From assembly GCA_049511795.1 (NCBI GenBank), contig JBEKXS010000001.1, positions 90,001 to 122,000 of the forward strand: a DNA stretch of 32,000 nt. The letters run 5' to 3'. Below are positions 298 to 27,440 of this stretch, one piece after another (the stretch's first letter is position 1; each line of letters starts with the position of its first letter). Below the pieces are notes generated by a model. The model saw only the letters and a program-made list of their open reading frames with translations, ran no database searches and was not told where the DNA came from. Both the position numbers and the translations under genes were made by a program. This DNA is from Candidatus Saccharimonadota bacterium. GTDB lineage: Archaea > Nanobdellota > Nanobdellia > Pacearchaeales > GW2011-AR1.

Positions 298-485
298 AGA
301 CAGAATAAGCTGCCCGAGTTTATAAACTTTGCAAAAAATATATTGAGAAAATGTCTTTACAATTGTATATTCATGTTATTATATATCAGTAAGTATAAAT
401 CTTTAAATACTTCCCGAAGTTCTGGTCTTCAATTATACAAGCTCTTGGGATAAAAGAGTGTTGCATATACAATAGGTTGTATACA

Positions 486-920: not shown

Positions 921-921
921 A

Positions 922-4068: not shown

Positions 4069-4082
4069 TTTCAGAGTTTTAC

Positions 4083-4106
4083 TTTATCACAATGATTTTT
4101 ATAAAC
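4083..4106 (+). promoter_or_regulatory. shared promoter-like motif upstream of the dCMP deaminase gene
   Basis: TTTATCACAATGATTTTTATAAAC. The TATA-like TTTATAAA lies 23-30 nt before the ATG. Near-identical copy at 4641-4665. Confidence 0.6.
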
Positions 4107-4126
4107 CTTAACAAGTATAGAAAATT

Positions 4127-4636
4127 ATGAGTTCCTCAATAGAAATACCTTCTTGGGATGATTATTTTATGACCTTAGTCTATATGGTGGCTTCCAGAAG
4201 CAAAGATTGGAGAACACATATGGGCGCTGTTATTGTCGATCAAAATCATTTTATTGTGTCTACAGGGTATAATAGTTTCCCAAGGCATATTGATGATAAA
4301 AAAGCTGAAAGACAGGAAAAGAATGAGAAAAAATATTGGATATTACATGCTGAAGAAAATGCAATACTCAATTCCGGGAGACTAACCTTAGAAGGATGCA
4401 CATTGTATACTAATGCTATTCCTTGCAGTGATAAATGTGCAATACAAATTGTCCAAAAAAGACCAAAAGAAGTTGTTGTTGATAAAAAATGGCCTACAAA
4501 TACCGCCGAATGGACTGAAAGGAACAAAAGAACATTGGAAATGTTTGCAGAAGCAGAAATAGGTTTTAGGCAGCTTGACACAAATTATATTCAAGTCGTC
4601 AGATTCAACGACGGTATTGTTTTACCCTTAAAATAA
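4127..4636 (+). CDS. dCMP deaminase (ComEB/Dctd family)
   Basis: 169 aa with the WDDYFM start, the zinc-ligand motifs HAEENA and PCSDKC, and typical size. Confidence 0.87.
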   Translation: MSSSIEIPSWDDYFMTLVYMVASRSKDWRTHMGAVIVDQNHFIVSTGYNSFPRHIDDKKAERQEKNEKKYWILHAEENAILNSGRLTLEGCTLYTNAIPCSDKCAIQIVQKRPKEVVVDKKWPTNTAEWTERNKRTLEMFAEAEIGFRQLDTNYIQVVRFNDGIVLPLK

Positions 4637-4640
4637 TCTT

Positions 4641-4665
4641 TTTATCACAATCATATTTATAAAAC
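4641..4665 (+). promoter_or_regulatory. shared promoter-like motif upstream of thyA
   Basis: TTTATCACAATCATATTTATAAAAC. The same 11-mer TTTATCACAAT plus a TATA-like box, 26 nt before the ATG. Confidence 0.6.
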
Positions 4666-4690
4666 GAGGCGCCATAAAATTAAATAAAAA

Positions 4691-5779
4691 ATGGTGAAGC
4701 AGTATCTTGAGCATTCTAGAGAAATATTAACTTCCCCTAAAAGTTTGTTCAAGGGCGGAAGCAAGGAGGTCCCTATTATTTCTTTATTCGGCTACCAGAA
4801 TGAATATGACCTTCGCGATGGTTTTCCTCTTCTTACGACAAAAAAAATGGCAATAATTTCATTGATTCATGAGCTTCTATGGTTTATGAGCGGAGACACA
4901 AATATCAAATATCTTGTCGACAATAAAGTTCCAATATGGACAAGGGATGCATTTAATTTCAACTTGGAAGCAATGGCAAGAGAAGGAGTTTTTCCAGGAC
5001 AACTGGCAAAATATTCCCCCGATTGGCAAAAAGCATTGTCTGAATATGAACAAAGAGTAAGAGAAGATTCAGATTTTGCAAAGAGGTGGGGAAATTTAGG
5101 ACCTGTATATGGTCAGCAATGGAGAAATTGGAAATCTGTTGGCGAAGATGGGAAAGTAGTTGTTGTAGATCAGCTTGGAAAACTTATTGAAAGTTTAGAA
5201 AAAAAGCCAACAAGCAAAAAAATAATTATGACTGCCTGGAATCCAGGGGAATTGTCAAGAATGGCTCTTGAACCTTGCCATATGTTTGTTCAGGTTGATT
5301 CTGACTCAAATGTAATGGACTTATTTATGCATCAGAGAAGCTGTGACCAATTTTTGGGAGTTCCATTTAATATTGCAAGCTATGCAATGTTTACTAAAGT
5401 TATTGCGCAACAAGCAGGATTTGAGACAAGAAGATTTATTCATAGTTTTGGAAGTGCGCATTTTTACTGTGGAACAGGCGAAAGAGGAAGATGGTATGGA
5501 GAACATCTTGATGAATTCAGGCAAAAAGTTGGACAGTGTATGTTTCCAGATGATTATAATGAAGCGCGTTTCTGGTTGGAAAGAAATCTCCCTCCTGAAG
5601 CAGAAGGGCAAGAAGGTTATGATCATGTTACTGCAATTATAGAACAACTTGCTAGACCAACAAGACCATTACCAAAAATGACAATTGCAGACAAGCCTTT
5701 TTATGAATTAAAAAGAGAAGATTTCAAATTAGAAAGTTATGACCCCTGGCCAAAAATAGAAAGAAAAATGGCTGTATAA
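4691..5779 (+). CDS. thyA: thymidylate synthase ThyA family, divergent and long (362 aa)
   Basis: IHELLWFMSGDTN, LGPVYGQQWRNW, TAWNPGEL, catalytic LEPCHMF, HQRSCDQFLGVPFNIASYA, PRPLPK-like RPTRPLPKM and C-terminal MAV. Has two large insertions. Confidence 0.88.
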   Translation: MVKQYLEHSREILTSPKSLFKGGSKEVPIISLFGYQNEYDLRDGFPLLTTKKMAIISLIHELLWFMSGDTNIKYLVDNKVPIWTRDAFNFNLEAMAREGVFPGQLAKYSPDWQKALSEYEQRVREDSDFAKRWGNLGPVYGQQWRNWKSVGEDGKVVVVDQLGKLIESLEKKPTSKKIIMTAWNPGELSRMALEPCHMFVQVDSDSNVMDLFMHQRSCDQFLGVPFNIASYAMFTKVIAQQAGFETRRFIHSFGSAHFYCGTGERGRWYGEHLDEFRQKVGQCMFPDDYNEARFWLERNLPPEAEGQEGYDHVTAIIEQLARPTRPLPKMTIADKPFYELKREDFKLESYDPWPKIERKMAV

Positions 5780-5780
5780 A

Positions 5781-6275
5781 ATGAAAGACCCTGAATTGAT
5801 AATAATCGTTGCTGCATCTTTGAATGATGTAATTGGAAAGGATGGCAATACTCCTTGGGATATTCCTGAAGACAGGCAACATTTCAAAAATCTTACTTTA
5901 AATCATCCTGTGATAATGGGAAGAAAAACTTATGAGTCAATTCCTCCAAGATTCAGGCCTCTTCCGCAAAGAAAGAACATCGTGCTTTCATCTTCTCTTG
6001 AGGAAATTCCAGAAATTTATATTGCAAGAAGCATGAAAGAAGCAATAGAACTTGTAGATGGGCAGGATGCATATGTAATGGGCGGTGCACAAGTTTATAG
6101 AGAATTTTTTAATATTACATCAAGGATAGAATTAACAAGAGTGGAAAGGAAATACGAAGGGGACGCCTTTTTTCCAAGAATTGATCTTACAGTGTGGAAA
6201 AAAGTTGGAAAAGATGAAGATGGAGTAAGCAGGACAGGCATACCTTATTCTTTTCAGAGATATGAAAGAGCATAG
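5781..6275 (+). CDS. folA: dihydrofolate reductase
   Basis: 164 aa: IIVAASLNDVIGKDGNTPW, HPVIMGRKTYESIP, YVMGGAQVY. Starts 1 nt after the thyA stop. Confidence 0.88.
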   Translation: MKDPELIIIVAASLNDVIGKDGNTPWDIPEDRQHFKNLTLNHPVIMGRKTYESIPPRFRPLPQRKNIVLSSSLEEIPEIYIARSMKEAIELVDGQDAYVMGGAQVYREFFNITSRIELTRVERKYEGDAFFPRIDLTVWKKVGKDEDGVSRTGIPYSFQRYERA

Positions 6276-6321
6276 AAGATAGTAAGACAAATTTTATAAA
6301 TCCAGATAATTCTTAGAGTTT

Positions 6322-6660
6322 ATGAAAACAGCAAAAGTCAAAACAAAGGGTGTTACAGAGCTGTCAGGAAATGAATTTCCTGATTTCACAAAAAAAGGCA
6401 CTGTTCTTGTTGATTTTTTTGCAGACTGGTGCATGCCATGCCTCATGATGGCTCCTGTAATGGAAGAACTTTCTGAAAAATTCACAGGAAAGATAAAATT
6501 CGCAAAAATAAATGTTGATGAGAACCAGCAGATTTCACACAAATTCAAGGTCATGTCAATACCAAATTTCATTCTTTTCAAGGACGGCAAGCCAATTGAC
6601 CAGTTTATAGGCTCAATGCCGATGGAAGATTTCGAGGAAAAGCTGAAAAGGCATCTGTAA
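6322..6660 (+). CDS. trxA: thioredoxin-fold protein with WCMPC active site
   Basis: 112 aa: VDFFADWCMPCLMMAP, KINVDEN, VMSIPNFILFKDGK. This is the typical Trx layout. Confidence 0.85.
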   Translation: MKTAKVKTKGVTELSGNEFPDFTKKGTVLVDFFADWCMPCLMMAPVMEELSEKFTGKIKFAKINVDENQQISHKFKVMSIPNFILFKDGKPIDQFIGSMPMEDFEEKLKRHL

Positions 6661-6711
6661 TTATTCTTAGTAGAAAGCTTTTTTAAACATCATTTTATTT
6701 ATTGAGCTAAC

Positions 6712-6786
6712 GGCTCCGTAGCTCAGCATGGATAGAGCACCGGACTTTTAATCCGGGTGTCGTGGGTTCAAATCCCATCGGGGCCA
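6712..6786 (+). tRNA. tRNA-Lys (anticodon UUU)
   Basis: Folded by eye. Acceptor stem GGCTCCG/CGGGGCC (one G-U pair), D arm GCTCAGCATGGATAGAGC, anticodon stem CCGGA/TCCGG with loop CTTTTAA (UUU), T arm GTGGGTTCAAATCCCAT, discriminator A. No encoded CCA. Confidence 0.9.
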
Positions 6787-8216: not shown

Positions 8217-8851
8217 GTGAAAGTAAAGCAAAGGCAAAACTGAACGGAGATGTAATAAAACTACCCCTTAGTTTTTCTCAAGGCAGTATTAGGGTAGCAG
8301 ACAATAAAGGAAATCACTTTCAAAAACCAACACAGCAAATTATGGATAAGGAATTGTATATTGAATGGATGATAACTAATGATGAAATTAAATTGTTGTC
8401 AAAACTTATCCCCAAGAAAAATATAGGAGATTTGATAAAAGTGTTACAAAGAATAAATAAGTTTGCAGAAGCAACGAAATATTCTAAAAGAGAATCAGAT
8501 AGAGGAGAAAAAGTTATTGCTGAATTTGAGGGCTTTAAGATATATCATTATACAGATGATTTTAATTCTTTTGAGAAAGTTCTTGGTTCTACATTAAAAG
8601 TAAGATTAACATTTAAGTTAGGAGATTATGGTGTTACATCCCATCCTCATATGTATGTTCTTGTCCCATTCAATTTTAAGACATTAAAAATAAAAAATAT
8701 CTCTGGGAATGTTAAGATAGGAGAACCTCTTGGAAAAAAGTGTTTTGCAGAACTAAATTTGACAGAAGAAGAACTTAAAGAGATAATATTAACACTTGCT
8801 CACGCTTCAAGTAATCATAGAAATGATTTGATTAAAGTTCTTGAATCCTGA
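8213..8851 (+). CDS. hypothetical protein (212 aa), transposon cargo
   Basis: ORF translationally coupled to the 60-aa ORF. Its 3' end overlaps the convergent methyltransferase gene by 20 bp. Confidence 0.6.
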   Translation: MSESKAKAKLNGDVIKLPLSFSQGSIRVADNKGNHFQKPTQQIMDKELYIEWMITNDEIKLLSKLIPKKNIGDLIKVLQRINKFAEATKYSKRESDRGEKVIAEFEGFKIYHYTDDFNSFEKVLGSTLKVRLTFKLGDYGVTSHPHMYVLVPFNFKTLKIKNISGNVKIGEPLGKKCFAELNLTEEELKEIILTLAHASSNHRNDLIKVLES

Positions 8852-9968
8852 AATCCAAAACATCATTTTTCTTTATTGACTTACTGCCTACTCTATGGGT
8901 TATGTTTCTAAAATGTTCTAAATTCTTATTAAGGGCTTTACAAACAGATTCTTTTATCTTTTTATTGCTATTGAACTCATCTTTAAATTTAAAGACAAAA
9001 AACATATCATTCAAAACATCTTCTTTGACATTAATTAACCCTGATTTTCCCACGCTTACATTACCCACTCTTGTAACTGCAAGAGCATAATCCTTAACAT
9101 CTTTTTCTTTTGGTATTTCTTGGTGTTGTAAAATGTTAGCCCCTGAAATATTGTTTTTTGTATAATCTCTTTGATAATGGGCTTTTTCATTAGATAAGAA
9201 ATCAAATAAAGGTTTTCCTTCTTGATGGTTTTTTATTTTGTATAAAAATGTTTTTGGGATTAATTCTTCTGTTAGTAATAGATTTTTGTCTAAAACTTCT
9301 TTAACATTCTGTCCATCTTCATAAAGGATTATTATTTTATCTCTGAATTTATCTATATTTGTAAAGATAGCAAAACAGCAAGGTATAGGTTCTTCAACCA
9401 TATTCTTACTATTCTGATAAATTATTATTGTGCTAAATCTGTTTATGATTTCTTTCTTAACTTCTTTATTTTTCTTTGCTATGAAAAAGGAGATAGGCAA
9501 AACAAAAGCTATACTTGAATTTTCATCTTTAAGATGTTTTATAGATTTCAAAATAAAAGCATTTTCTATTTGAACTTTCTCTTTTTTCTTGAAGGATTCT
9601 GTTAAATAATCTTCATTATTCTTATACTTCTTTGGGAAAAAATAGCTGTCTTTGACATTATATTTTGTAAATGGTGGATTTCCTATAATCAAATCAAACT
9701 TTTTATCTAAATCAAACAAAAAGAAATCACAGGGCTTACTTGTCAGATTCTCATCTATTTCACACTCTTGAATATTGTTAAAACCCTGCTCTTGCATTCC
9801 CTTTACAAAGTTTCTTGTCCCTGCTGATGGTTCTAAAACATTTATATCTCTATTGTAATCTTTATATTCTAAAAGAAGTCTAATTACTCTATCAACAACA
9901 TTTCTTTTAGTGAAATATTGTCCCCAAACAAATTTCTTATCGCCCATATCTATTTTATGCTTTGACAT
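8832..9968 (-). CDS. N6-adenine DNA methyltransferase, gamma class (TaqI/Eco57I-like)
   Basis: 378 aa with motif order GQYFTKRN (X), VLEPSAGTRNF (I), LIIGNPPFTKY (IV), then a long variable C-terminal (target-recognition-like) half. Confidence 0.82.
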   Translation of the reverse strand: MSKHKIDMGDKKFVWGQYFTKRNVVDRVIRLLLEYKDYNRDINVLEPSAGTRNFVKGMQEQGFNNIQECEIDENLTSKPCDFFLFDLDKKFDLIIGNPPFTKYNVKDSYFFPKKYKNNEDYLTESFKKKEKVQIENAFILKSIKHLKDENSSIAFVLPISFFIAKKNKEVKKEIINRFSTIIIYQNSKNMVEEPIPCCFAIFTNIDKFRDKIIILYEDGQNVKEVLDKNLLLTEELIPKTFLYKIKNHQEGKPLFDFLSNEKAHYQRDYTKNNISGANILQHQEIPKEKDVKDYALAVTRVGNVSVGKSGLINVKEDVLNDMFFVFKFKDEFNSNKKIKESVCKALNKNLEHFRNITHRVGSKSIKKNDVLDFRIQEL

Positions 9969-9971
9969 TTT

Positions 9972-10874
9972 TTAACTCTTTTGACTTGCTAAGTATATCA
10001 AGTCAAGCCATTTATTTTTCCCAAGATTAAGATTAACCCCTGCTTGTTCAATAGGAGTTTTATTTATGCCTTGATGGATTCTTATAAAATTGTAATAAAC
10101 AACAAACAAAGACAAAATAGCTTCTGCACTTTCAGGGCTTTTGAAATTTCTCATAACCTTGATTCTTGCCCTGATAGTACCTTGTATTCTTTCTATTATG
10201 TTATTTCTTCTGTCTTCACTTGCTTTTAATCTTGTATAAACTTCTCTATCTAATTTTCTGTTTCTTGAACCCCAAACTTTTCTATATGCTTTCTTATAAG
10301 CAAAAGCTGAATCTGTGAATAATGATAATGGTTTATTCTGTGCTTTGAAGAAAAGCATTTTAGCACTCTTTGTATCTCTTTTTGTTGAGTAATGAGAAGA
10401 AACCAAAACTCTTGTTTCCTTATCTATCATATCCCAAAAATAATGCTGTTCATTCTTACATTTAACAAAAATCTCATCTGCGTGATAAATTCTTGAAAGA
10501 TTTAAGTCAAATTTTCTCTGAAAATCTTTTAACAATATAGCATATCTTCTTATCCAGTTTAGAACAGCTTGATGGCTTACTTGATAATCTGAAAACTGGT
10601 TAAAATGCTCTTTGACTTTTCTTAAACTCAACCCATTCATATAAAGAGAAACGCACTGGGTTATTACTTCTCTTTTGTGCTTTGTTTTGAAGAAACCATC
10701 ATCAACCACAAAACATTCAGAACAGGAATTACATTTCCATCTTTGCTTTTTTGTGGTATGGTTGAATCTGAAACCCCACTTAATAACTTCTTCAGATTTA
10801 CAATAAGGACAAACCTTCGGCTTGATAACCGAAACTAATTTATAGTTCTGTGTCTTCTGATTTTCGTTATTCAT
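9972..10874 (-). CDS. IS6-family DDE transposase with an N-terminal zinc ribbon
   Basis: 300 aa. CPYC..17 aa..CNSC, an HTH-like segment (LSLRKVKEHF...SHQAVLNWIRRY), then YHADEIFVK, LFTDSAFAYKKA and RRNNIIERIQGTIRARIKVMRNFKS. These line up with the DDE and GFKS regions of IS26 Tnp as I recall them. Confidence 0.88.
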   Translation of the reverse strand: MNNENQKTQNYKLVSVIKPKVCPYCKSEEVIKWGFRFNHTTKKQRWKCNSCSECFVVDDGFFKTKHKREVITQCVSLYMNGLSLRKVKEHFNQFSDYQVSHQAVLNWIRRYAILLKDFQRKFDLNLSRIYHADEIFVKCKNEQHYFWDMIDKETRVLVSSHYSTKRDTKSAKMLFFKAQNKPLSLFTDSAFAYKKAYRKVWGSRNRKLDREVYTRLKASEDRRNNIIERIQGTIRARIKVMRNFKSPESAEAILSLFVVYYNFIRIHQGINKTPIEQAGVNLNLGKNKWLDLIYLASQKS

Positions 10875-13130: not shown

Positions 13131-13343
13131 ATGCATATTCTACAACCAAAACATACCAAACTAAAAGAGAAAGAGTCCCAGGAATTACTTGCAAAACTCA
13201 ATATTTCTAAAGCTCAGCTGCCAAAAATACTTTCAACAGACCCTGCATTGCCTGAAGAATGTGCTGTTGGCGATGTCATAAAGATAGAAAGGAAAGAGCA
13301 TGACAGCGATAAAACAACCCCATATTACAGAGTTGTTGTTTAA
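13131..13343 (+). CDS. rpoH: DNA-directed RNA polymerase subunit H (Rpo5)
   Basis: 70 aa: QPKHTKL..EKESQELL..QLPKI..DP..GDVIKIER......YYRVVV. Lies directly upstream of rpoB. Confidence 0.88.
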   Translation: MHILQPKHTKLKEKESQELLAKLNISKAQLPKILSTDPALPEECAVGDVIKIERKEHDSDKTTPYYRVVV

Positions 13344-13388: not shown

Positions 13389-16300
13389 ATGAAACCAGGA
13401 AAACACCTAATTGTGAAAAAGTATCTTGAAGAACACTCTCTGGTAGAAAGTAATATTATTTCTTTCAATAATTTCGTTGAAAAAAGAATGCAGGAAATCG
13501 TCGATGAAATTGCAGGAACAATAAACAACGAAGATTTTGAAATAACACTTGGAAAAATAGAAATTGGGAAACCAAAAGTCATAGAAGCTGACGGAAGTTC
13601 CTCGCTTATAACGCCTCAGGAAGCAAAATTAAGGGATTTAACATATGCTGCTCCTGTAAGCCTTGAATTGACAGTAAAAAAAGACGACCAAGTTGACTCA
13701 GAAACAGTTGAAATCGGAAAAATTCCTATAATGGTAAGGAGTAAATTCTGCAACACATATGGAATGACAAAAGATCAGCTTATAGAAACATATCACGACC
13801 CATTGGACCCTGGTGGATATTTTGTCATAAAGGGAAATGAGCGTGTCATGGTAATGGCAGAAGACCTTGCAGAAAACCAGCCATTTATAGAAGATAATTC
13901 AAAAGGAGATTTAACACTAAAATTGTTCTCATCAAAGGGAACTTACAGAATTCCTGTCCTTATTTCTGAAAACAAGGAAGGAATAATTGATGTTTCATTC
14001 AGCAAATTCAAAGATGTTCCTGCTGTCGTAATCCTTAAAGCTCTTGGACTGATAAAAGAGTCAGACATTGCAAAATACATCGGAAAGGAAACAGACGCCG
14101 TAATTGTCAATTTGTATGAATTTGCGCACATTGCAACAAAAGAAGATGCAATGCTTTACATTTCAGAGAAAACAAGCCTTCAAGGAACAAAGAAAGAAAT
14201 TCTTGACAGAGTTAAGCAGAGAATTGATTCATATCTTTTCCCACACATAGGGCAAAAGAAAGAAGACAGGATAAAAAAAGCTATAACTTTATGCAAGCTC
14301 ATAAAGCAATTCCTTATTTCAAAGGAAAATCCAAAATTAAGAACAGATAAGGACCATTATGCAAATAAAAGGGTCAGGCTTTCTGGAGACCTTCTTGCAA
14401 CTTTGTTCAGGGTTAATCTAGGAATTTTGATAAGAGATATCCAATACTCATTGCAAAAATCAGCGAAGAGAAAAAAATTCTTTTCAATAAAAATAATTGC
14501 AAAATCAACTCTCTTTTCGCATAGAGTAGAATCAGCAATTGCAACAGGAAGCTGGACAGGAGAAAGAAGCGGAATAACACAGAACATGGATAAGACAAAT
14601 TATCTTGCAACTATTTCACAGCTTCAGCGTGTTTCATCTATGCTTGCAAGTGACCAGGAAAATTTCGCTGCAAGAACATTGCATCCAACTCATTACGGAA
14701 GATTCTGCCCTATTGAAACTCCTGAAGGAACAGAAATCGGACTCAGAAAAAATCTTGCAATTCTCAGTAGAGTTTCAACAAGAACAGACCTTAGCGAGGA
14801 AAAATTCCTGAAAGACCTTTCTATTCATGGTCTTGAGGTTGAAGGAACAGACGGAACAGAAGTTTTCCTTAACGGTATTTTCATTGGGATGGTAAAAAAT
14901 CCAAAAGAGTTCACAATGGCAATAAGGGAAAAAAGAAGGAAAGGGGAATTGCCTATTGAAATGAACATAAGGCATGATGAAAATTTCCAGACAGTAAATG
15001 TTTACACAGAACCTGGAAGAGTTTTAAGACCCTTGATAATTGTCGACAATGGTGTTTCAAGATTGAAGAATGAGCACATGGTAAGAGTCGAAAGCAATGA
15101 AATAGGATGGAAAGACCTTTTAAGAGAAGGAGTTATTGAATATATAGATGCTGCAGAGGAAGAAGAAGCGCTTGTTGCATTGCATGAAGAAGAATTAACT
15201 CACGAGCACACTCACCTTGAAATTGACCCAACAGACTTGTTCGGTGTCATAACAAGCCTTGTTCCATATTCAAATCACGATCAAAGTTCCAGACTTAACA
15301 GAGGAAGTAAGACACAAAAACAGGCTCTTGGTCTTTATGCTGCAAATTATTTGACAAGGCTTGACACAGATGTTTCCATTCTTCAATATCCCCAAAAACC
15401 AATTGTAAGAAGTTTTGTTTATGATACATTGCAGGCATATCCTGCAGGACAAAATCTTGTCGTTGCTGTGATGACTCATGAAGGTTACAACATGGAAGAT
15501 GCACTTGTTTTCAACAAAGGTAGTCTTGATCGTGGAGTGGGAAGAAGTTTTTATTTTAGGCCTTACAGCGCTGTTGAAATGAATTATGCAGGTGGATTAA
15601 AAGATGAAATAGTCATTCCTGAAAAAGATTCTTCAGGTTACAGGACAGAGGAAAGCTACAAGCATCTTGAATCAGATGGAATTGTTTCTCCTGAAGCAGA
15701 AATTGACGAGGGAGAAGTCATGATTGGAAAAGTTTCTCCACCAAAATTCCTTTCAGAGGCAAGAGAAATTTCTGTAAGGACAAAGAAAGAGTCCAGTGTT
15801 GCAATGAAGCAGGAAGAAAAAGGAATTGTTGAAGGTGTTTTCATAACAGAAGACGACGATGGAAACAAAATTGTCCAGGTTAAAACAAGAGACCAAAGAA
15901 TTCCAGAGCTTGGAGACAAATTCGCAACATCTCACGGACAAAAAGGAGTTATTGGATTAATTGTTGATGAAGAAGATGTTCCATTCACTTCAAAAGGAAT
16001 AAGGCCAGATGTAATGTTTAATCCACATGGTCTTCCAAGCAGAATGACAGTTGGTTATCTTCTTGAATTGCTTGCAGGAAAAGTAGGATGTTTGAAGGGA
16101 GAAGTCATGGACGGAACAGCCTTCTCTGGAACAAGCAAAAAAGAACTTGAAGAAGCTTTGAAAGAGCTTGGATTCAGGTATGATGGAAAAGAAACAATGT
16201 ATTCTGGAATAACTGGAAAGAAAATGCAGACAAAAATCTTCGTCGGTAATTTATATTACTTGAAGCTTAAATATATGGTTGGAAATAAGCTTCATGGAAG

Positions 16301-16643
16301 AGCTTCTGGTAAAATTGCTTTACTTACAAGACAGCCTGTTGAAGGTCGTTCTCGTGGTGGAGCATTGAGGCTTGGAGAGATGGAGCAACAGGCAATGGTT
16401 GCACATGGAGCCTCTCTTCTTTTGAAAGAAAGATATGATTCTGACAAAGTTGTTCTTCATATCTGCACAAAATGTGGAGCTTTGGCAATAGAAGACAATA
16501 TCAGGGACAAAACAGTCTGCCCTATTTGCAATTCAGAGGAAGTCGAGCCTGTTGAAGTATCATATGCATTCAAGCTTTTAATTGAAGAACTCCAAGGACT
16601 TCACATTCACACAAACTTTGACCTGAAAAATAAGTATGAATAA
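13389..16643 (+). CDS. rpoB: DNA-directed RNA polymerase subunit B (unsplit)
   Basis: 1084 aa: GYFVIKGNERV, FCPIETPEG, NMEDALVFNK, GDKFATSHGQKGV, GEMEQQA, and a C-terminal zinc ribbon CTKCG..CPIC. Confidence 0.97.
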   Translation: MKPGKHLIVKKYLEEHSLVESNIISFNNFVEKRMQEIVDEIAGTINNEDFEITLGKIEIGKPKVIEADGSSSLITPQEAKLRDLTYAAPVSLELTVKKDDQVDSETVEIGKIPIMVRSKFCNTYGMTKDQLIETYHDPLDPGGYFVIKGNERVMVMAEDLAENQPFIEDNSKGDLTLKLFSSKGTYRIPVLISENKEGIIDVSFSKFKDVPAVVILKALGLIKESDIAKYIGKETDAVIVNLYEFAHIATKEDAMLYISEKTSLQGTKKEILDRVKQRIDSYLFPHIGQKKEDRIKKAITLCKLIKQFLISKENPKLRTDKDHYANKRVRLSGDLLATLFRVNLGILIRDIQYSLQKSAKRKKFFSIKIIAKSTLFSHRVESAIATGSWTGERSGITQNMDKTNYLATISQLQRVSSMLASDQENFAARTLHPTHYGRFCPIETPEGTEIGLRKNLAILSRVSTRTDLSEEKFLKDLSIHGLEVEGTDGTEVFLNGIFIGMVKNPKEFTMAIREKRRKGELPIEMNIRHDENFQTVNVYTEPGRVLRPLIIVDNGVSRLKNEHMVRVESNEIGWKDLLREGVIEYIDAAEEEEALVALHEEELTHEHTHLEIDPTDLFGVITSLVPYSNHDQSSRLNRGSKTQKQALGLYAANYLTRLDTDVSILQYPQKPIVRSFVYDTLQAYPAGQNLVVAVMTHEGYNMEDALVFNKGSLDRGVGRSFYFRPYSAVEMNYAGGLKDEIVIPEKDSSGYRTEESYKHLESDGIVSPEAEIDEGEVMIGKVSPPKFLSEAREISVRTKKESSVAMKQEEKGIVEGVFITEDDDGNKIVQVKTRDQRIPELGDKFATSHGQKGVIGLIVDEEDVPFTSKGIRPDVMFNPHGLPSRMTVGYLLELLAGKVGCLKGEVMDGTAFSGTSKKELEEALKELGFRYDGKETMYSGITGKKMQTKIFVGNLYYLKLKYMVGNKLHGRASGKIALLTRQPVEGRSRGGALRLGEMEQQAMVAHGASLLLKERYDSDKVVLHICTKCGALAIEDNIRDKTVCPICNSEEVEPVEVSYAFKLLIEELQGLHIHTNFDLKNKYE

Positions 16644-16650
16644 ATAAAAA

Positions 16651-16956
16651 ATGAACAAAACAGAAAGAATTAAGGATATGAGAATGGTTTCGACATTAGT
16701 TTACGATAGAAAATACACTGCTGCTAATGGCAAAGTTATGGATGAAGTAACAGCATGGGTTGGTTTACAATCTCCTTTTGTTGGATTTTCTGGAGATTTT
16801 GATTATTATGCACTTAATAGAGAACAAACACAAGTTGTAAGGGTTAATCCATCTGAAAGAACAATAGAATTATCAAAAGATGTTGATACAGACCAAAAAG
16901 GAACTATTGAATATATACTAAAAACGGAAATAAGGGGACCTGACCTAGCTGCTTAA
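16651..16956 (+). CDS. hypothetical protein (101 aa) embedded between rpoB and rpoA
   Basis: The ORF starts 7 nt after the rpoB stop and ends 8 nt before the rpoA ATG, on the same strand. No motif recognised. Confidence 0.6.
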   Translation: MNKTERIKDMRMVSTLVYDRKYTAANGKVMDEVTAWVGLQSPFVGFSGDFDYYALNREQTQVVRVNPSERTIELSKDVDTDQKGTIEYILKTEIRGPDLAA

Positions 16957-16964
16957 AAACAAAA

Positions 16965-19900
16965 ATGGCAAAAACAATCAGAAAAAAAATAAAATCAATA
17001 AGCTTTTCATTGCTTAGCCCTGAGAAAATAAAAAAGCTCTCTGTTGCGAAAATAGTTACGCCAGAACTTTATGATATAGATGGTTATCCTGTCGACGGTG
17101 GTTTGATGGATTTAAGATTGGGAGCAATTGATCCGGGTGTAAGATGTAGAACATGTGGTGGAAGACTGAAAGAATGCCTTGGACACCCCGGAAGTATTGA
17201 CCTCGCAAGATCTTTAATACATTTAAAATATGTTCCAATGATTGAGCTCGGATTACGTTGTTTCTGCAAACAATGCGGAAAATTAATGCTTTCTGAAAAA
17301 GACCTTGCAAAATACACGCCAAGCCAGAGAATAAAGAAAGCAAAGGATGTAAAGAAATGCCCACACTGCAATACTGTTCAGGAAAAAATAAAGCTTGACA
17401 AGCCAACAACATTCTACAGAGGAAAAACAAGAATATTCCCAACAGAGATAAGAGATACCCTTGTTAATATTCCAGATGAAGAACTTAAAAAAATAGGAAT
17501 GAATCCTCACAATTTCAGGCCAGAATGGGGTGTACTCACAATTCTTCTTGTTCCTCCTGTAACAGTAAGGCCTTCAATTATTCTTGAATCAGGAGAAAGA
17601 AGTGAGGATGATTTAACTCACAAGCTTTCAGATATAATAAGAGCAAATCAGAGACTTTGGGAAAATCTTAATGCTGGAGCGCCAGAGGTTATTATCGAGG
17701 ATTTGTGGGATTTGCTTCAATTCCATGTAACAACATTCTTTGATAACACTGTTACAAGAATTCCTCCTGCAAGGCACAGGTCAGGACAGCCATTGAAAAC
17801 AATCACAGAAAGAATAAAGGGTAAGGAAGGAAGAATCAGGAAAAATCTTGCAGGTAAAAGAGTTAATTATTCTGGAAGAACTGTTATCTCTCCTGATCCA
17901 TCAATGCAGATAAATGAAGTTGGAATTCCTTTTGAAATTGCAAAAATTGTAACAGTCGCTGAAACAGTAACTGACCTAAACATTGACAGGCTGAAAAAAA
18001 AGGTAGAAAGTGCAGAAGTTTATCCTGGAGCAAATTATGTAATAAGACCTGATGGAAAACGTAAAAAAATAACGCCAGAATTGAAAGAAGAAATAATCAA
18101 CGAGCTTGTTCCTGGATATCAGGTTGAAAGGCATCTTGAAAACGGAGACATTGTTCTTTTCAACCGTCATCCTAGCCTTCACAAAGGAAGCTTGATGGCG
18201 CATTATGTAAAAGTCCTTCCTGGAAGAACATTCAGGCTTCACCCTGCTGCAAAAACACCTTACAATGCTGATTTCGACGGTGATGAAATGAACATTCACA
18301 GCCCACAGACAGAGGAAGCAAGAGCAGAGGCAAAGATTTTGCTTGAAGTAAAGAAAAATCTCATTTCTCCGAAGAATAATACAAACTGGATTGGTTGTCT
18401 TGGGGATGCAATAACAGGAGATTATCTCATGGGTTTAGAAGAATTTTCAAGAGAAGATGCAAACCAGCTTCTTTACAGCTCTGGAATCGATGGAGAAGTT
18501 TCAAAGAAAACAATCAGTGGAATAGAATTATTTTCAAAAATACTTCCTAAAATTGATTTCTCAGGCGAAACAGTAAAAATAAAGGACGGACAGATAACAA
18601 AGGGTATTCCTGACAAGACTCTTTTCGGCGATGAAGATGGTGTCTTGATAAAGGATATAGACAAGAAATTCGGAAGAAATGTTGCATTTGAATCAATAAG
18701 AAAAGCGTTCAATATTGGCAAGAATTATCTTACAGGAAGGGGAATAAGCTTCTCTGTAGATGATTTCGATGTTGACCAAAAAATATTTGATATGTCTGAA
18801 GAAATTGTCAAAAAAGCAGAGGAAAAAACAACAGAGATAATCGACGAATACAACAAAGGGACTCTTGAAATCATACAAGGAAAAAGTCTTGAAGAATCAA
18901 GGGAAATAAAAATTCTTAAGGTTCTTAATGAAGTAAGAACAAAAATAGGAGAAATTGTTAAGGAAGAATTCCCAAAGGACAGTCCTGTCACTTACATGAT
19001 AAAATCCGGAGGCGGAGGAAACATGCTTAACATAACACAAATGGCTTGCTGTGTAGGGCAACAGGACTTGGAAGGAAGAAGAATTGATTTGGGATACAAT
19101 GATAGAACACTTTCATTTTTCAAGAAAGGGGATTTGAATCCAAAAGCAAAGGGTTTCATAAGAAGCGCATTCATGAAAGGTTTGAAGCCAGAAGAATTTT
19201 TCTTCCAGGCAATAACAGGAAGATCTTCACTTATGGATACTGCTCTTAGAACGCCAAGGTCTGGTTATTTGTACAGAAGGCTTGCAAATGCACTTCAGGA
19301 CTTAAGGATGGAATATGACAGCACTGTTAGAGACAGCAACAACAACATAATTCAGTTTATTTACGGCGACGATGGAATAGATGTTTCAAAGCTTCATCTT
19401 GGAGGAAAACTCGACCCTGGTGAAGCAATAGGAATAATTACTGCTCAGAGCTTTGGGGAACCATCAACGCAAATGGTATTGAGAACATTCCACTTTGCAG
19501 GTGTCTCTGAAATGCAGGTTACGCAAGGACTTCCAAGGCTTATTGAAATATTTGATGCAAGAAAAAAGCCATCAAGCCCTAAAATGGAAATCTATCTGAA
19601 AAAAGAATTCAACAATGAAAAAGACGCAAGAGTATTCGCAGAAAAAATAAAGGAAGTCACTGTCAGCGATTTTGCATCTGAAATAAACATTGATTTCACT
19701 GACAAAAAAATCGAAGTCAAGATTGACAAGGAAGGATTGCATCAAAGTCATACTTCTGTAAAGAAAATTGTTGAAAGGCTTAAGGAACTTGGATTCTCAT
19801 GCAATGAAAAAACAGATTCAATATCTATCAAAGCGCCGGGAGAGATCAGTTTCAAGGAACTTTACAAGCTAAAAGAAAAATTGAAAAAAACAATTATTTC

Positions 19901-20456
19901 AGATATAAAGGGAGTAAAGCAGATTCTCATCGTAAAAAGAGCAGAAGATTACATTGTCATGACATTGGGAACAAACTTAAAGAGAATATTGGAACTGAAA
20001 GAAGTAAACACTCAAAGAACAATTTCAAATGACCTTCATGAAGTTGCAGATGTTCTTGGCATCGAGGCTGCAAGGCAATTGATAATAAATGAAATACAGG
20101 AAGTTTTGAACACACAGGGCCTTGATATAGACAAGAGGCACTTGAAACTTGTCTCTGATGCTATGACAAACACCGGAGAAGTAAAAGGTGTGACAAGAAT
20201 AGGAATAATCGCGCAAAAATCCTCGATACTTGCAAGAGCAACATTCGAAACACCTGTAAAGCAATTTGTAAATGCGACGATAAAGGGAAACAAGGACCAG
20301 CTTACAAGCGTAATTGAAAATGTCATTCTCAACCAGCCAATTCCTGTTGGAACAGGACTACCAGGACTTTTAGTAAAGGTTGTCGGACCTCTCGTAAAGG
20401 AAGAATCCAAGAAGAAGTTTGCAAAAAAAGAAGTTGTAGACGAGGTTGCCAAGTAA
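16965..20456 (+). CDS. rpoA: DNA-directed RNA polymerase subunit A, with A' and A'' parts fused in one ORF
   Basis: 1163 aa. Zinc motifs CRTCGG..C, catalytic NADFDGDEMN, bridge helix GRSSLMDTALRTPRSGYLYRRL, then in the same frame the A''-type trigger loop AQSFGEPSTQMVLRTFHFAGV. Confidence 0.95.
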   Translation: MAKTIRKKIKSISFSLLSPEKIKKLSVAKIVTPELYDIDGYPVDGGLMDLRLGAIDPGVRCRTCGGRLKECLGHPGSIDLARSLIHLKYVPMIELGLRCFCKQCGKLMLSEKDLAKYTPSQRIKKAKDVKKCPHCNTVQEKIKLDKPTTFYRGKTRIFPTEIRDTLVNIPDEELKKIGMNPHNFRPEWGVLTILLVPPVTVRPSIILESGERSEDDLTHKLSDIIRANQRLWENLNAGAPEVIIEDLWDLLQFHVTTFFDNTVTRIPPARHRSGQPLKTITERIKGKEGRIRKNLAGKRVNYSGRTVISPDPSMQINEVGIPFEIAKIVTVAETVTDLNIDRLKKKVESAEVYPGANYVIRPDGKRKKITPELKEEIINELVPGYQVERHLENGDIVLFNRHPSLHKGSLMAHYVKVLPGRTFRLHPAAKTPYNADFDGDEMNIHSPQTEEARAEAKILLEVKKNLISPKNNTNWIGCLGDAITGDYLMGLEEFSREDANQLLYSSGIDGEVSKKTISGIELFSKILPKIDFSGETVKIKDGQITKGIPDKTLFGDEDGVLIKDIDKKFGRNVAFESIRKAFNIGKNYLTGRGISFSVDDFDVDQKIFDMSEEIVKKAEEKTTEIIDEYNKGTLEIIQGKSLEESREIKILKVLNEVRTKIGEIVKEEFPKDSPVTYMIKSGGGGNMLNITQMACCVGQQDLEGRRIDLGYNDRTLSFFKKGDLNPKAKGFIRSAFMKGLKPEEFFFQAITGRSSLMDTALRTPRSGYLYRRLANALQDLRMEYDSTVRDSNNNIIQFIYGDDGIDVSKLHLGGKLDPGEAIGIITAQSFGEPSTQMVLRTFHFAGVSEMQVTQGLPRLIEIFDARKKPSSPKMEIYLKKEFNNEKDARVFAEKIKEVTVSDFASEINIDFTDKKIEVKIDKEGLHQSHTSVKKIVERLKELGFSCNEKTDSISIKAPGEISFKELYKLKEKLKKTIISDIKGVKQILIVKRAEDYIVMTLGTNLKRILELKEVNTQRTISNDLHEVADVLGIEAARQLIINEIQEVLNTQGLDIDKRHLKLVSDAMTNTGEVKGVTRIGIIAQKSSILARATFETPVKQFVNATIKGNKDQLTSVIENVILNQPIPVGTGLPGLLVKVVGPLVKEESKKKFAKKEVVDEVAK

Positions 20457-20512
20457 ACCTAGTATACTGAGTATAACATTAATTTTAAAAAGGAGAGGGA
20501 TTAAATTATTTT

Positions 20513-20683
20513 ATGGACACTATTTTAGGTATTGTAATTTTAGATGCGGTTCTATTACTTATTGGTGTGTTCATGTCATGGAAAGAGTTGAATAAAAAAC
20601 ATACAGATGTAGTCTGGAAGCTAGTTGAATATGTAACAATGGCACTTGTGGGTTATCTCCTCGCAACAGGGAGGATAGTATAA
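20513..20683 (+). CDS. possible 56-aa membrane mini-protein (not in the ORF track)
   Basis: Hand translation: MDTILGIVILDAVLLLIGVFMSWKELNKKHTDVVWKLVEYVTMALVGYLLATGRIV. AGGAGAGGGA lies 12 nt upstream of the ATG. Confidence 0.35.
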   Translation: MDTILGIVILDAVLLLIGVFMSWKELNKKHTDVVWKLVEYVTMALVGYLLATGRIV

Positions 20684-20684
20684 A

Positions 20685-20801
20685 ATGACAAATATAATTA
20701 CTATTATCGGAATATGTGTTTTTGTCTTTGGTGGAATAGTCAAAAACAAAGAATTATTGGGTTTAGGAACTGTCTTGATTATACTAGGAGCTTTTATTTA
20801 A
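20685..20801 (+). CDS. possible 38-aa membrane mini-protein (not in the ORF track)
   Basis: MTNIITIIGICVFVFGGIVKNKELLGLGTVLIILGAFI. Starts 1 nt after the previous stop. Confidence 0.3.
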   Translation: MTNIITIIGICVFVFGGIVKNKELLGLGTVLIILGAFI

Positions 20802-20887
20802 TTTTTGTGTAAAAATAAATTAACAAAGATTTATAAGACAAATAATTTTAAAATTCATATCAAGAGGTTAAAAATTCAATAAACAAA

Positions 20888-24654: not shown

Positions 24655-26361
24655 TTACTTAGGTCTAATTTTAGGCCTCATTACTGCTATTACACCTGCA
24701 ATAAGACCAATTGCAACTAGAATTATTATTATAATTCCTACAGGACTTCCCAATGCTCCGATTACTCCACCTGTTATTGGTGCTGGAGTATTAGTTGCAG
24801 CTCCTGTTATTGGAGCTCCACCGCCGGCTGCTGTTGTTGCAGGATTAGTTGTTGGTGTTGTTGCTACAGGTGCTGTTACATATGTTCCTCCATAAGCATT
24901 TCCACCGCCACCACCATTTGAAGGAGGAGGGGATGTTATTTGAGCATTACATAAATCTGAAGTTAAATAATCATTAGAACCTTGAGAAGTTAATTGTAAA
25001 AGAGTACAACTATTAGCAGCACTATTATACTCATAATAAGGTTTTGTCACATTCAAAATTACAGTTACTGTTTGTCCGCTGACTGTTCCTGTGTATGTGT
25101 ATGTTCCTGCTGGATAGTTGTCATCAATAACTAAAGATTTACTCCCTAATCCAAGAGCATACTGAAATCCATCAATTAAAGCATAATTTCCTGCACCATC
25201 AGAAGTCAAGTAGAAGAAGGGTGAAGTTCCTATAATCTCATTGCCAATTTGAGTTTGCATAGCTGGAATCCAACCTGATTTAGCTGCAAAGTAATTTGTT
25301 AAGGTTGTTTGCTGTGTGCTGTTAGCTGCTAGAGAAAATGCGTATTTATTATTTGGTAATGGACCATTGGTAACTATTACATTACTAACATTTAATGTGT
25401 AGCAAGCATTAGTACCATTATTCGTTCCACTGCAAGAACCAGAATCAGTTGTTGCAAGAGTGGCTCCAGAAAGAGTACCAATTGATACGGCGTTGCTGGT
25501 AATAGTTGCGGATGTTAATATTGGTGTTGGTACTGTTGGTGAGTTTACAATTCCACCAGTTCCAGTGAATGTAACAGCAGTCTGAGACAGAGCCATTCCA
25601 TTTAGTGTTGCACCATTCAAATTAATATAGGTTGATGGTCCTGCTAATATTACTCCCTCAAAAACTGAAGTACTCTGAAGTTCAGCATATGCACCTGCAA
25701 CAGTCCAGAATATGTTTTGAGACTGACAAGCTCCAGTTAATGTAATCTGAGTATTGCTTCCTACAGTGAGGTCACCTGCTATTTGGAAGATAAATGTATC
25801 AGAAGAATCTGGACAATAAAGTGTAACACCCTTCACATCCCCATTAGCAATATTGTGAGGATTACCAGCATTTATTAATAGTCCATTTGACCATTTGTAA
25901 AGACCAGGTGTTAATGTCATCCCACTAATATCTCCAGCTCCTAATTCAGTAGCGGTAGGAGTTCCCTCACCTGTACCTGATGCTGTATTATAAGCAGTTT
26001 GCATATCACCTGCTGCATTAGTTACTAGAGCAGGAGTTGCACCTCCACCTGCTATTCCTGTATAATCATATGCATACATCTTTTCAGACACTAAAGATGA
26101 TGTCGCAAAGTTAAGTGAAGAATCCATTGTTTGGCTAAACCCTGTAAAAGCAGTACTAGTGACTCCTTGACCTAATCCAATATTTCCAACAATTGAAGTG
26201 ATTCCAGCAGCTGAAATACCTGTATCTGCAAAAACAGCAAAATTACCTGATGCTCCAAGACTAGGTAGTGCTGGACCAGCTGCTGTAACAGAAAATGCAG
26301 ATAAAAGAATTGCTACAGAGAGCAATGCGAAAATTAAAAACTTTGATTTATTATTTGTCAT
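24655..26361 (-). CDS. surface protein: signal/anchor + DUF3494 (ice-binding-like beta-solenoid) + extra domain + P/T/G linker + C-terminal TM anchor
   Basis: 568 aa: LGASGNFAVFADTGISAAGITSIVGNIG, TATELGAGDISGMTLTPGLYKW, FIFQIAGDLTVG, NIFWTVAG, GMALSQTAVTF. The C-terminus is GIIIIILVAIGLIAGVIAVMRPKIRPK. Confidence 0.8.
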   Translation of the reverse strand: MTNNKSKFLIFALLSVAILLSAFSVTAAGPALPSLGASGNFAVFADTGISAAGITSIVGNIGLGQGVTSTAFTGFSQTMDSSLNFATSSLVSEKMYAYDYTGIAGGGATPALVTNAAGDMQTAYNTASGTGEGTPTATELGAGDISGMTLTPGLYKWSNGLLINAGNPHNIANGDVKGVTLYCPDSSDTFIFQIAGDLTVGSNTQITLTGACQSQNIFWTVAGAYAELQSTSVFEGVILAGPSTYINLNGATLNGMALSQTAVTFTGTGGIVNSPTVPTPILTSATITSNAVSIGTLSGATLATTDSGSCSGTNNGTNACYTLNVSNVIVTNGPLPNNKYAFSLAANSTQQTTLTNYFAAKSGWIPAMQTQIGNEIIGTSPFFYLTSDGAGNYALIDGFQYALGLGSKSLVIDDNYPAGTYTYTGTVSGQTVTVILNVTKPYYEYNSAANSCTLLQLTSQGSNDYLTSDLCNAQITSPPPSNGGGGGNAYGGTYVTAPVATTPTTNPATTAAGGGAPITGAATNTPAPITGGVIGALGSPVGIIIIILVAIGLIAGVIAVMRPKIRPK

Positions 26362-26394
26362 TTTGTTTTTTTGATTAAATTAAAGAGAATAAGG

Positions 26395-26437
26395 GAGTAT
26401 ATATGCTGGCGCGGTAGCCATACATAATTGTTGTATA
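26395..26437 (-). promoter_or_regulatory. conserved intergenic motif, copy A (TATA-like element plus GC-rich box plus distal box)
   Basis: GAGTATATATGCTGGCGCGGTAGCCATACATAATTGTTGTATA, 39/42 identical to 31152-31193. Lies 33 nt upstream of the 568-aa gene ATG. Confidence 0.65.
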
Positions 26438-26480
26438 TGCTAGTACTTCTCTTTGTATAAAAAATAAAGAATAAGAAATC

Positions 26481-27440
26481 TTAGTTTGATATTGTTACAG
26501 CGTTGTATTGCAATGTAACAGCTGTTTGTGCCAATGCTCTACCATTCAGTATTGCGCCAGTGTTTAGTGCAATATTTGTTTGATCTAAAATATTCCCTTG
26601 GAAGTTAGATGTTGTTCCAAGTGTTGTTGTTCCAGCAACCTGCCAGAAAATGTTCTTTGGTCGGCAACTACCACTTAAAGCAATCATTGCGCCATTACCT
26701 ACAGTAAGAGTTTGTGCTATTTGGAAAATAAAGACAGCATTCGTATTGCCTCCACAGTTAAGAGTAACACCAGTTGGTATTGTCAATCCAGTACTCCATT
26801 TGTATAGTCCAGGTGTTAGTGTCATCCCATCAATATTTCCAGCTCCAAGTTCAGTAGCAGTAGGGTTTGTCCTTCCAGCTGCGTCAGTATATGCTGTTTG
26901 CATATCGCTTATAGCTGTACCTATATTAATAGGAGTAGGGGGTGAATAATCTGATGCATATACTTTTCCAGTAACTAAAGATGATGTTGAAAATGTATTA
27001 GAAGAATCCATTGTTAATCCAAATCCAGTAATAGCAGTTGAGGTGATTGGACTAACTCCAATGTTTCCAGTGATTGAAGTTGTTCCAGTTGTTGATATTC
27101 CTGTTTTTGCTAATATAACAAAATTACCTGCTGTTCCAAGATTTACTGCTGCAGGACCTGATGCACCAGTTGTTGCGTTACCTGAAGTTCCTCCAGACGA
27201 ACCAGAACTTCCTCCGCTACTTCCACCACTACTTGTTCCTCCAGAAGTCCCACCTGATGTTCCGCCAGAACTTGTTCCTCCTGAATTTCCAGTAGTTCCA
27301 GTTCCTCCTGTTGAAGGAGTTCCTGTTGTAGGAGTACCTGTTGAAACAGAAGGTGTACTATAATTTGAATATATTAAATAACCTAAAACTATAACTACTA
27401 CAATCAAAATAACCCAGCCCCATAAACCTCTTTTATTCAT
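26481..27440 (-). CDS. secreted/anchored DUF3494 (ice-binding-like) protein with a G/S/T-rich stalk
   Basis: 319 aa: LGTAGNFVILAKTGISTTGTTSITGNIGVSP..ITGF, TATELGAGNIDGMTLTPGLYKW, AVFIFQIAQTLTVG, NIFWQVAGTTTLGT, GRALAQTAVTL. This is the canonical DUF3494 pattern. Confidence 0.85.
   Translation of the reverse strand: MNKRGLWGWVILIVVVIVLGYLIYSNYSTPSVSTGTPTTGTPSTGGTGTTGNSGGTSSGGTSGGTSGGTSSGGSSGGSSGSSGGTSGNATTGASGPAAVNLGTAGNFVILAKTGISTTGTTSITGNIGVSPITSTAITGFGLTMDSSNTFSTSSLVTGKVYASDYSPPTPINIGTAISDMQTAYTDAAGRTNPTATELGAGNIDGMTLTPGLYKWSTGLTIPTGVTLNCGGNTNAVFIFQIAQTLTVGNGAMIALSGSCRPKNIFWQVAGTTTLGTTSNFQGNILDQTNIALNTGAILNGRALAQTAVTLQYNAVTISN
27156..27359 (-). repeat. low-complexity coding repeat, (G-G-T/S-S)n stalk of the 319-aa protein
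   Basis: Residues ~28-95: STPSVSTGTPTTGTPSTGGTGTTGNSGGTSSGGTSGGTSGGTSSGGSSGGSSGSSGGTSGNATTGASG. Confidence 0.8.

Follow-up and report, generated by a model that had tools for sequence, protein, structure and literature searches.

ORF101 is an open reading frame (ORF) of 101 amino acids (aa) that lies between rpoB and rpoA, the genes for the catalytic subunits of RNA polymerase (RNAP), in a 32,000-nt stretch of archaeal DNA (assembly GCA_049511795.1, contig JBEKXS010000001.1, positions 90,001 to 122,000 of the forward strand). We refer to this whole stretch as the window and give all coordinates within it; the GC content of the DNA is ~36%. Archaeal RNAP is considered almost invariant in composition, and rpoB normally stands next to rpoA. 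The gene order at this locus is rpoH, rpoB, ORF101, rpoA, two tiny hydrophobic ORFs, a gene for a nusA-like KH protein, rpsL (S12), rpsG (S7) and EF-2. The features of the rpoH to rpoA region are listed below, with the basis of each assignment.

13131..13343, + strand: rpoH (Rpo5, 70 aa), the first gene of the operon (Pfam RNA_pol_Rpb5_C, E 9.6e-19)
13389..16643, + strand: rpoB, unsplit, 1084 aa, the upstream flank (Pfam Rpb2 domains 1-7)
16644..16650, + strand: 7-nt spacer ATAAAAA from the rpoB stop codon to the ORF101 ATG (sequence; L001, a relative with an empty slot, has the same spacer between rpoB and rpoA)
16651..16956, + strand: ORF101, 101 aa plus stop, ATG start (ORF list; homologues; score of 114 bits against the family hidden Markov model (HMM) A4)
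16651..16701, + strand: N-terminal extension of ORF101, residues 1-17 (..ERIKDM..), common only to the closest subfamily (P0002, P0003, P0004, P0020)
16702..16926, + strand: folded core, residues 18-92 (DSSP on the AlphaFold2 model; column conservation)
16924..16953, + strand: C-terminal tail T-E-I-R-G-x-D-L, residues 92-101 (family alignment A5; low model confidence)
16651..16964, + strand: 314-nt segment, ORF101 plus the 8-nt spacer that follows it, lacking in L001 (DNA alignment)
16965..20456, + strand: rpoA, unsplit (A' and A'' in a single ORF), 1163 aa, the downstream flank (Pfam Rpb1 domains 1-5)

An initial annotation of this locus had placed a 101-aa ORF 7 nt after the rpoB stop codon and 8 nt before the rpoA start; coordinates, length, spacing and translation all agree exactly with the ORF list and the sequence. 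The gene it called rpoA' is here a single unsplit rpoA. The spacer between ORF101 and the rpoA ATG reads AAACAAAA, and neither this nor the upstream spacer contains a run of five T residues or leaves room for a promoter or terminator. Judging by this spacing, ORF101 must be carried on the rpoH-rpoB-rpoA message, as had been proposed.

ORF101 is a real, selected protein-coding gene of an undescribed family. Shuffling the 321-nt rpoB-rpoA slot 20,000 times produced an uninterrupted reading frame of 101 codons or more only 3 times. The GC content at the three codon positions follows the coding pattern GC1 > GC2 > GC3 (0.47/0.36/0.16), and the opposite strand holds no ORF of 50 aa or more. The start at M1 is supported by the closest homologues (P0002, P0003, P0004 and P0020), which align through the N-terminal ERIKD segment. 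A shorter public gene call of 72 aa (P0001) is an artefact, the contig concerned (L062) starting within the gene. It was also considered whether ORF101 could be a split-off piece of RpoA or RpoB, and this was rejected: both neighbours give full-length matches to their Pfam domains, and neither is hit by the family HMM. An Rfam scan found no RNA family in the slot. The GC3 of ORF101 lies ~3 standard errors below that of rpoB, rpoA and EF-2 (0.28-0.30); this could reflect weaker codon selection or an origin in lower-GC DNA.

Homologues were sought at several levels of sensitivity. A word-indexed search of 5.8 billion proteins with ORF101 as the single query gave only the truncated self-match P0001. 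A HMMER scan of 1.84 billion cluster representatives returned 17 matches, 16 of which are small proteins of 87-100 aa, and profile searches added further homologues to give a total of ~33 members (80-113 aa), all of them unnamed or tagged 'hypothetical'. One candidate, P0016 (679 aa, four weak repeat matches, E 3e-4), was discarded as spurious; it contains PPC-like repeats, and the profiles did not recover it. Neither ORF101 nor the family gave a significant match in Pfam, NCBIfam or PDB sequence and profile searches, in line with the earlier remark that no motif of a known RNAP subunit or factor could be recognised. In the literature searched, no gene has been described as lying between rpoB and rpoA in DPANN archaea. 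The family is confined to one Nanoarchaeota lineage of tiny groundwater archaea, with records labelled Pacearchaeota, Woesearchaeota or Nanoarchaeota.

ORF101 shares 54-55% identity with P0002 and P0003. The motifs of the family, YDEV..AW(I/V)G, YYxLD, Q(V/I)(V/I)RxN and RTIE(L/I)S, are all visible in the ORF101 alignments, as is the C-terminal motif I.HI(L/I)KTEIRGxDL. Conserved core positions are Y18, D31, E32, Y52, Y53, R64, I72, E73, S75, V78, I86 and I89, and T92, E93, I94 and R95 are invariant in alignment A5. At least four subtypes can be distinguished. The protein has no Cys and no catalytic motifs, and across members the net charge spans -9 to +8 (median isoelectric point 6.1).

Selection was gauged from the ratio of nonsynonymous to synonymous divergence (dN/dS, Nei-Gojobori). 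For L014-L064, the least saturated informative pair (dS 0.51; dS is saturated for most pairs), the ratio is 0.31 for the family gene and 0.03 for the adjacent rpoB and rpoA, and it is below 1 in all family pairs. The family is under purifying selection, evolving ~10x faster than the polymerase genes. The initial annotation had allowed that the ORF might have no homologues, or evolve at a dN/dS near 1; these doubts are dispelled in silico by homologues at the same locus in relatives and by the ratio of 0.31.

The position of the family is nearly invariant. Across 72 sequences (71 loci and the window) holding 3636 ORFs of 35 aa or more on either strand, the family HMM made 20 matches, all of them to + strand ORFs in the rpoB-rpoA slot. 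Protein-first look-ups, which were not conditioned on rpoB, likewise give the order rpoB-X-rpoA (L063, L064, L067, L069-L073, L075, L077 and L078). Counting the window, 16 of the 18 distinct family loci are rpoB-rpoA slots with the gene on the same strand, the exceptions being L074 and L076. Stop and start codons of slot members overlap or stand 1-8 nt apart, so translational coupling of the family gene with rpoB and rpoA is likely; a TAA-A-ATG junction recurs, and the family gene abuts or overlaps rpoA in L063, L069, L073, L075 and L077. Tandem paralogues share one slot in L064 (4656-5279; 113 and 92 aa) and L070 (1958-2635; 92 and 101 aa), and the L063 slot holds a fragment plus a full copy (3638-3805 and 5001-5300). 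Hence the family has duplicated and decayed in place. Among slot ORFs it is the sole multi-lineage family, forming an 18-member cluster where every other cluster has at most 3 members.

To place these loci in context, the RpoB C-terminus was scanned against one genome per GTDB species. This gave 61 loci, mostly 73-99% identical there and nearly all labelled as Nanoarchaeota, Pacearchaeota or Woesearchaeota metagenome-assembled genomes, which assigns the window to a DPANN archaeon of this group. An interpretable rpoB-rpoA junction was available for 54 species representatives. The slot is empty, with rpoB and rpoA adjacent (gap of at most 75 nt), in 28 of these species and occupied (189-742 nt) in 26. 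ORF101 family members account for five occupied slots (L002, L004, L014, L040 and L043); the other 21 contain unrelated, mostly orphan ORFs.

The closest relative, L001, has an empty slot, and its rpoA ATG stands exactly at the position of the ORF101 ATG in the window. L001 and the window share 99% protein identity at the RpoB C-terminus and 97% at the RpoA N-terminus (dS ~0.65). Nucleotide identity of the flanks is flat, at ~88% overall and 83-94% per 150-nt interval, with no spike at the slot, leaving recent import by recombination unsupported. A quick neighbour-joining tree built on 600 aa of RpoB and RpoA segments places the family in at least five separate clades, interleaved with empty or otherwise-occupied slots, and among close relatives the slot may hold a family member, hold an unrelated ORF or be empty. 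The tree of the family disagrees with that of RpoB: ORF101 is 49% identical to its L063 counterpart and 33% identical to that of L004, the corresponding RpoB identities being 82% and 93%. This disagreement would be accounted for by ancient paralogy within the slot followed by differential loss, or by exchange between relatives. ORF101 is a dispensable, lineage-restricted accessory gene that is co-expressed with RNAP and has been lost many times.

The non-family occupants of the slot are mostly unrelated to each other as well as to the family (hhalign probability against the family <5%). Only one of the 26 such ORFs has a Pfam match. The slot ORFs of L029 and L033 were considered as family members and rejected (HMM E 0.08-0.4, hhalign probability <3%), and the remaining slot ORFs gave no remote homology to the family. 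Transmembrane mini-proteins occur in the slots of L049, L045 and L023. A motif R(K/D)DPxTA..Y.ELK is found in slot ORFs of L028 (3793-3972), L061 (6902-7132) and L030 (3637-3825), and those of L028 and L061 cluster by phmmer. Several other occupants are Cys-rich mini-proteins, and L019, L028, L016, L015 and L005 are also among the loci with recurrent motifs.

A structural model was obtained with AlphaFold2 from a 29-sequence family alignment (predicted local distance difference test (pLDDT) 91.8, predicted template modelling score (pTM) 0.81); it was used in place of a single-sequence prediction, which gave a pLDDT of 44. DSSP assigns a strand at 18-23, a helix at 27-40, strands at 43-47, 50-54, 62-66 and 71-75, and a helix at 80-92. 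The predicted fold is a two-layer alpha/beta domain in which two long helices pack on a five-stranded sheet, and the C-terminal tail is modelled at low confidence (block means 63 and 48). As modelled, the product is a soluble, Cys-free single domain with a probably flexible KTEIRGxDL tail. The invariant TEIR residues lie in this low-confidence region, making the tail a candidate docking peptide. If indirectly, the absence of Cys and the mixed net charge favour protein binding over a metal site or a conserved DNA-binding surface.

The chain order of the model, beta-alpha-beta4-alpha (S1-H1-S2-S3-S4-S5-H2), is that of the TATA-binding protein (TBP)-like, or helix-grip, domain. Foldseek found no match in PDB at E of 0.001 or below. 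The top match was 1dl5, the C-terminal domain of the Thermotoga maritima protein-L-isoaspartate O-methyltransferase (E 0.076, probability 0.96, TMq 0.51), which superposes with a root-mean-square deviation of 3.7 Å over 86 columns at 13% identity. Weaker matches (E ~0.5-1, TMq 0.3-0.43) were to TBP chains and to CENP-N and RnlA, both of which we take to be TBP-like folds; TBP chains gave TMq values of 0.30-0.37 (e.g. 1ais_A, E 0.48, TMq 0.30; 4rod_B, E 0.51, TMq 0.33). A BFVD search found nothing. None of the 29 members matched the Pfam TBP family (PF00352) even at E up to 1, and hhalign of the A4 profile against the yeast TBP core (sequence checked against 1ngm_A) gave a probability of 0.06%. 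The likeness of the predicted fold to TBP, which draws on the order of secondary-structure elements and on weak Foldseek matches, is thus topological only.

We favour, at a probability of about 0.4, the reading that ORF101 encodes an optional RNAP-associated binding protein with a role in modulation or assembly. This reading leads because the family is the sole multi-lineage occupant of the junction, is exclusive to one slot of the operon and frequently overlaps the rpoA start. The family has been inherited mainly inside the rpoB-rpoA junction, duplicated there and often lost, and ORF101 would act as an optional protein-binding module made alongside RNAP. Docking may involve the conserved polar and aromatic residues of the beta-strands together with the C-terminal tail. 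The most plausible partner would be RNAP itself or nascent RpoA, with an effect on modulation or assembly, not on catalysis.

Several observations weigh against an RNAP-associated role. The slot is empty in more than half of the related species, the closest relative included, and the family is present in just 9%; protein-database searches gave no extra family copies from NCBI genomes, although the whole genomes with empty slots were not scanned. In an underpowered test, presence of the family was not associated with any indel or alignment column of RpoB or RpoA. Two divergent members, P0025 (L074, 750-1004) and P0030 (L076, 225-467), lie outside the rpo operon, each divergently transcribed beside a CBS-domain gene and with its own AT-rich upstream region; P0025 is followed after 4 nt by a gene for a thermosome (group II chaperonin). 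Finally, recognisable cargo of the operon is not RNAP-related, and includes an AdoMet decarboxylase with an Ocnus-like ORF (L078), a DUF3800 protein (L064), an HD plus OB protein (L063) and the transmembrane mini-proteins. With unrelated cargo in the slot and in nearby junctions, operon position is weak evidence of function.

These observations suit a second explanation, in which ORF101 is an unrelated passenger: a small binding domain acting outside transcription that gains only a promoter and ribosomes from the strongly expressed rpoH-rpoB-rpoA-nusA-rpsL-rpsG operon. The family would then stem from one old insertion in very compact genomes, followed by vertical inheritance in place, duplication and frequent loss. 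The scarcity of the family, its two off-operon members, the lack of co-variation with RNAP and the near-absence of Pfam matches among the other slot ORFs are all in its favour. So is the state of the operon as a whole. All of its junctions vary in length among the 61 relatives, up to ~1.2 kb and with rpoH-rpoB included; rpoA-nusA spans 24-988 nt, nusA-S12 37-1220 nt and S12-S7 -13 to 412 nt. These junctions are packed with mostly orphan small ORFs, and 53 of 92 slot ORFs are singletons. Junction plasticity is operon-wide, not specific to ORF101. Against the passenger explanation, no other slot ORF family is kept across at least five separate RpoB/RpoA clades, and the ORF101 family is absent from the other slots of the operon, with frequent overlap onto the rpoA start codon. 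In archaeal information-processing operons, ORFs of unknown role have historically tended to prove functionally related. We regard the passenger explanation as nearly as likely as RNAP association.

A bolder version of RNAP association would take the rpoB-rpoA junction itself to be a hypervariable accessory locus for small RNAP-docking proteins, of which ORF101, with its TBP-like topology, would be the oldest and most successful, tuning RNAP or shielding it, perhaps from inhibitors made by viruses or the host, and being swapped, duplicated or lost between species. We consider this unlikely. If true, it would point to a strain-variable accessory subunit of archaeal RNAP of a kind not seen before.

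As another special case of RNAP association, ORF101 could be a conflict-driven guard or modulator that protects or retunes the polymerase against inhibitors of viral or host origin. Such a role would account for the fast evolution (dN/dS ~10x that of the flanks), the in-place duplication that left tandem paralogues, the diversification into at least four subtypes and the presence/absence polymorphism by which close species differ in slot content, and it fits the incongruence between the family and RpoB trees. Hidden paralogy with differential loss explains that incongruence equally well, however, and dN/dS stays below 1 in every pair. PADLOC yielded only two isolated matches (E 0.003-0.008, each in 1 of 29 members) and no defence-system match, and no homologues were found in PHROGs, BFVD, IMG/VR, phage or plasmid records. 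We know of no virus of this lineage that targets RNAP. A guard function seems improbable.

The tightly coupled position between the genes of the catalytic subunits could suggest a core or lineage-wide RNAP subunit replacing Rpo8 or Rpo13, and the initial annotation had offered a lineage-specific subunit, for example a beta-barrel analogue of Rpo8. The family is missing from the slot in 49 of the 54 species, and its presence or absence makes no difference to the lengths or domain sets of RpoA and RpoB. Instead of a beta-barrel, the confident model has a two-layer alpha/beta architecture, Foldseek gave nothing significant, and there is no Rpb8/RpoG match in Pfam or NCBIfam. Such a subunit is very improbable. 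A selfish or mobile insertion (homing endonuclease, insertion sequence remnant or viral gene), the alternative put forward at the outset, might be read from the patchy distribution, the clean 314-nt presence/absence difference from L001, the low GC3 relative to the flanks and an imperfect A-rich direct repeat of 28 nt flanking the indel, but it is just as hard to sustain given that Pfam and NCBIfam show no nuclease or transposase domain in ORF101 or the family, the segment has no terminal inverted repeats, no viral, plasmid or defence matches exist in the collections named above, no copy occurs at another site within the loci, the flanks carry no imported-DNA signature and the direct repeat is at background. 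That repeat, and a resemblance between the N-termini of ORF101 and RpoA, were also rejected as evidence of duplication, as A-rich starts in 11 loci match at 14-23 of 36 positions. ORF101 is neither a stoichiometric core subunit nor an Rpo8 analogue, and it is not a mobile element.

Several known systems resemble ORF101 in part. Rpo13 of Sulfolobales and Rpo8/RpoG of Crenarchaeota and Korarchaeota are likewise ~100 aa, restricted to one archaeal lineage and without a bacterial counterpart. ORF101 is encoded together with the catalytic subunits and has no sequence match to either. Rpo8 is a beta-barrel and Rpo13 is helical, unlike the two-layer model of ORF101. Both are fixed within their own lineages, whereas the ORF101 family occurs in 5 of 54 species. 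Monopartite TBP-domain proteins of Thermococcales, and halobacterial TbpA, are also archaeal, stand-alone proteins of ~90-100 aa whose function is unknown. The published monopartite proteins were found via PF00352 (Brindefalk et al. 2013, PMC3597702), a family that ORF101 and its relatives do not match. The closest structural match, the T. maritima methyltransferase domain, is a bacterial enzyme appendage with no functional or contextual link to ORF101. As small genes sharing the RNAP operon transcript, rpl30e and nusA, located between rpoA'' and rps12, offer a parallel; almost all Archaea have them, downstream of rpoA, whereas ORF101 is optional, lies between rpoB and rpoA and is found in one lineage. 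The RNAP subunits delta, epsilon and omega of Firmicutes provide an analogy without homology. They are small, non-essential and lineage-restricted, have been shown biochemically to co-purify with RNAP, and are proposed to serve in tuning or protection.

The family is new; a lineage-specific small gene within the RNAP operon is already known as a kind. What stands out is a structured, selected, unannotated family that lives almost solely between rpoB and rpoA in uncultivated, genome-reduced archaea, in a junction and a whole operon that are unexpectedly plastic in this archaeal group. Should the product bind RNAP, it would be a rare case in Archaea of a polymerase accessory factor that is optional and varies between strains, and would provide a handle on transcription in DPANN. 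Should it not, a position in a core operon would be a poor guide to function in these genomes, and the locus would document a reservoir of orphan small genes riding housekeeping operons.

Further features of the operon lie downstream of ORF101. The unsplit rpoA of 1163 aa is also seen in at least L064 and L078, the relatives with full-length gene calls. An unsplit RpoA has been reported for Thaumarchaeota, Korarchaeota and Caldiarchaeum, with separate A' and A'' in Crenarchaeota and Euryarchaeota (PMC3082918). The interval between rpoA and nusA (20457-20887) contains no rpl30e; in its place are two tiny hydrophobic ORFs at 20513-20683 (56 aa) and ~20685-20801 (38 aa). Two runs of five T residues (at 20719 and 20802) and a TTTATAA box ~60 nt ahead of the nusA ATG suggest termination and a separate, putative nusA promoter.

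Elsewhere, the window contains the following features. The transposase and methylase region has a GC content of 27-31% and falls within a low-GC stretch at ~8-13 kb, 2-4 kb upstream of rpoH.

477-6786: deoxynucleotide-synthesis cluster of NrdR, class II ribonucleotide reductase, dCMP deaminase, ThyA, DHFR and thioredoxin, followed by a tRNA
6712-6786: the tRNA after this cluster
8832-9968, - strand: Eco57I-like methylase gene
9972-10874, - strand: IS240-type DDE transposase, adjoining the methylase gene
24655-27440, - strand: two adjacent ice-binding-like (PF11999) proteins of 568 and 319 aa, directly downstream of EF-2

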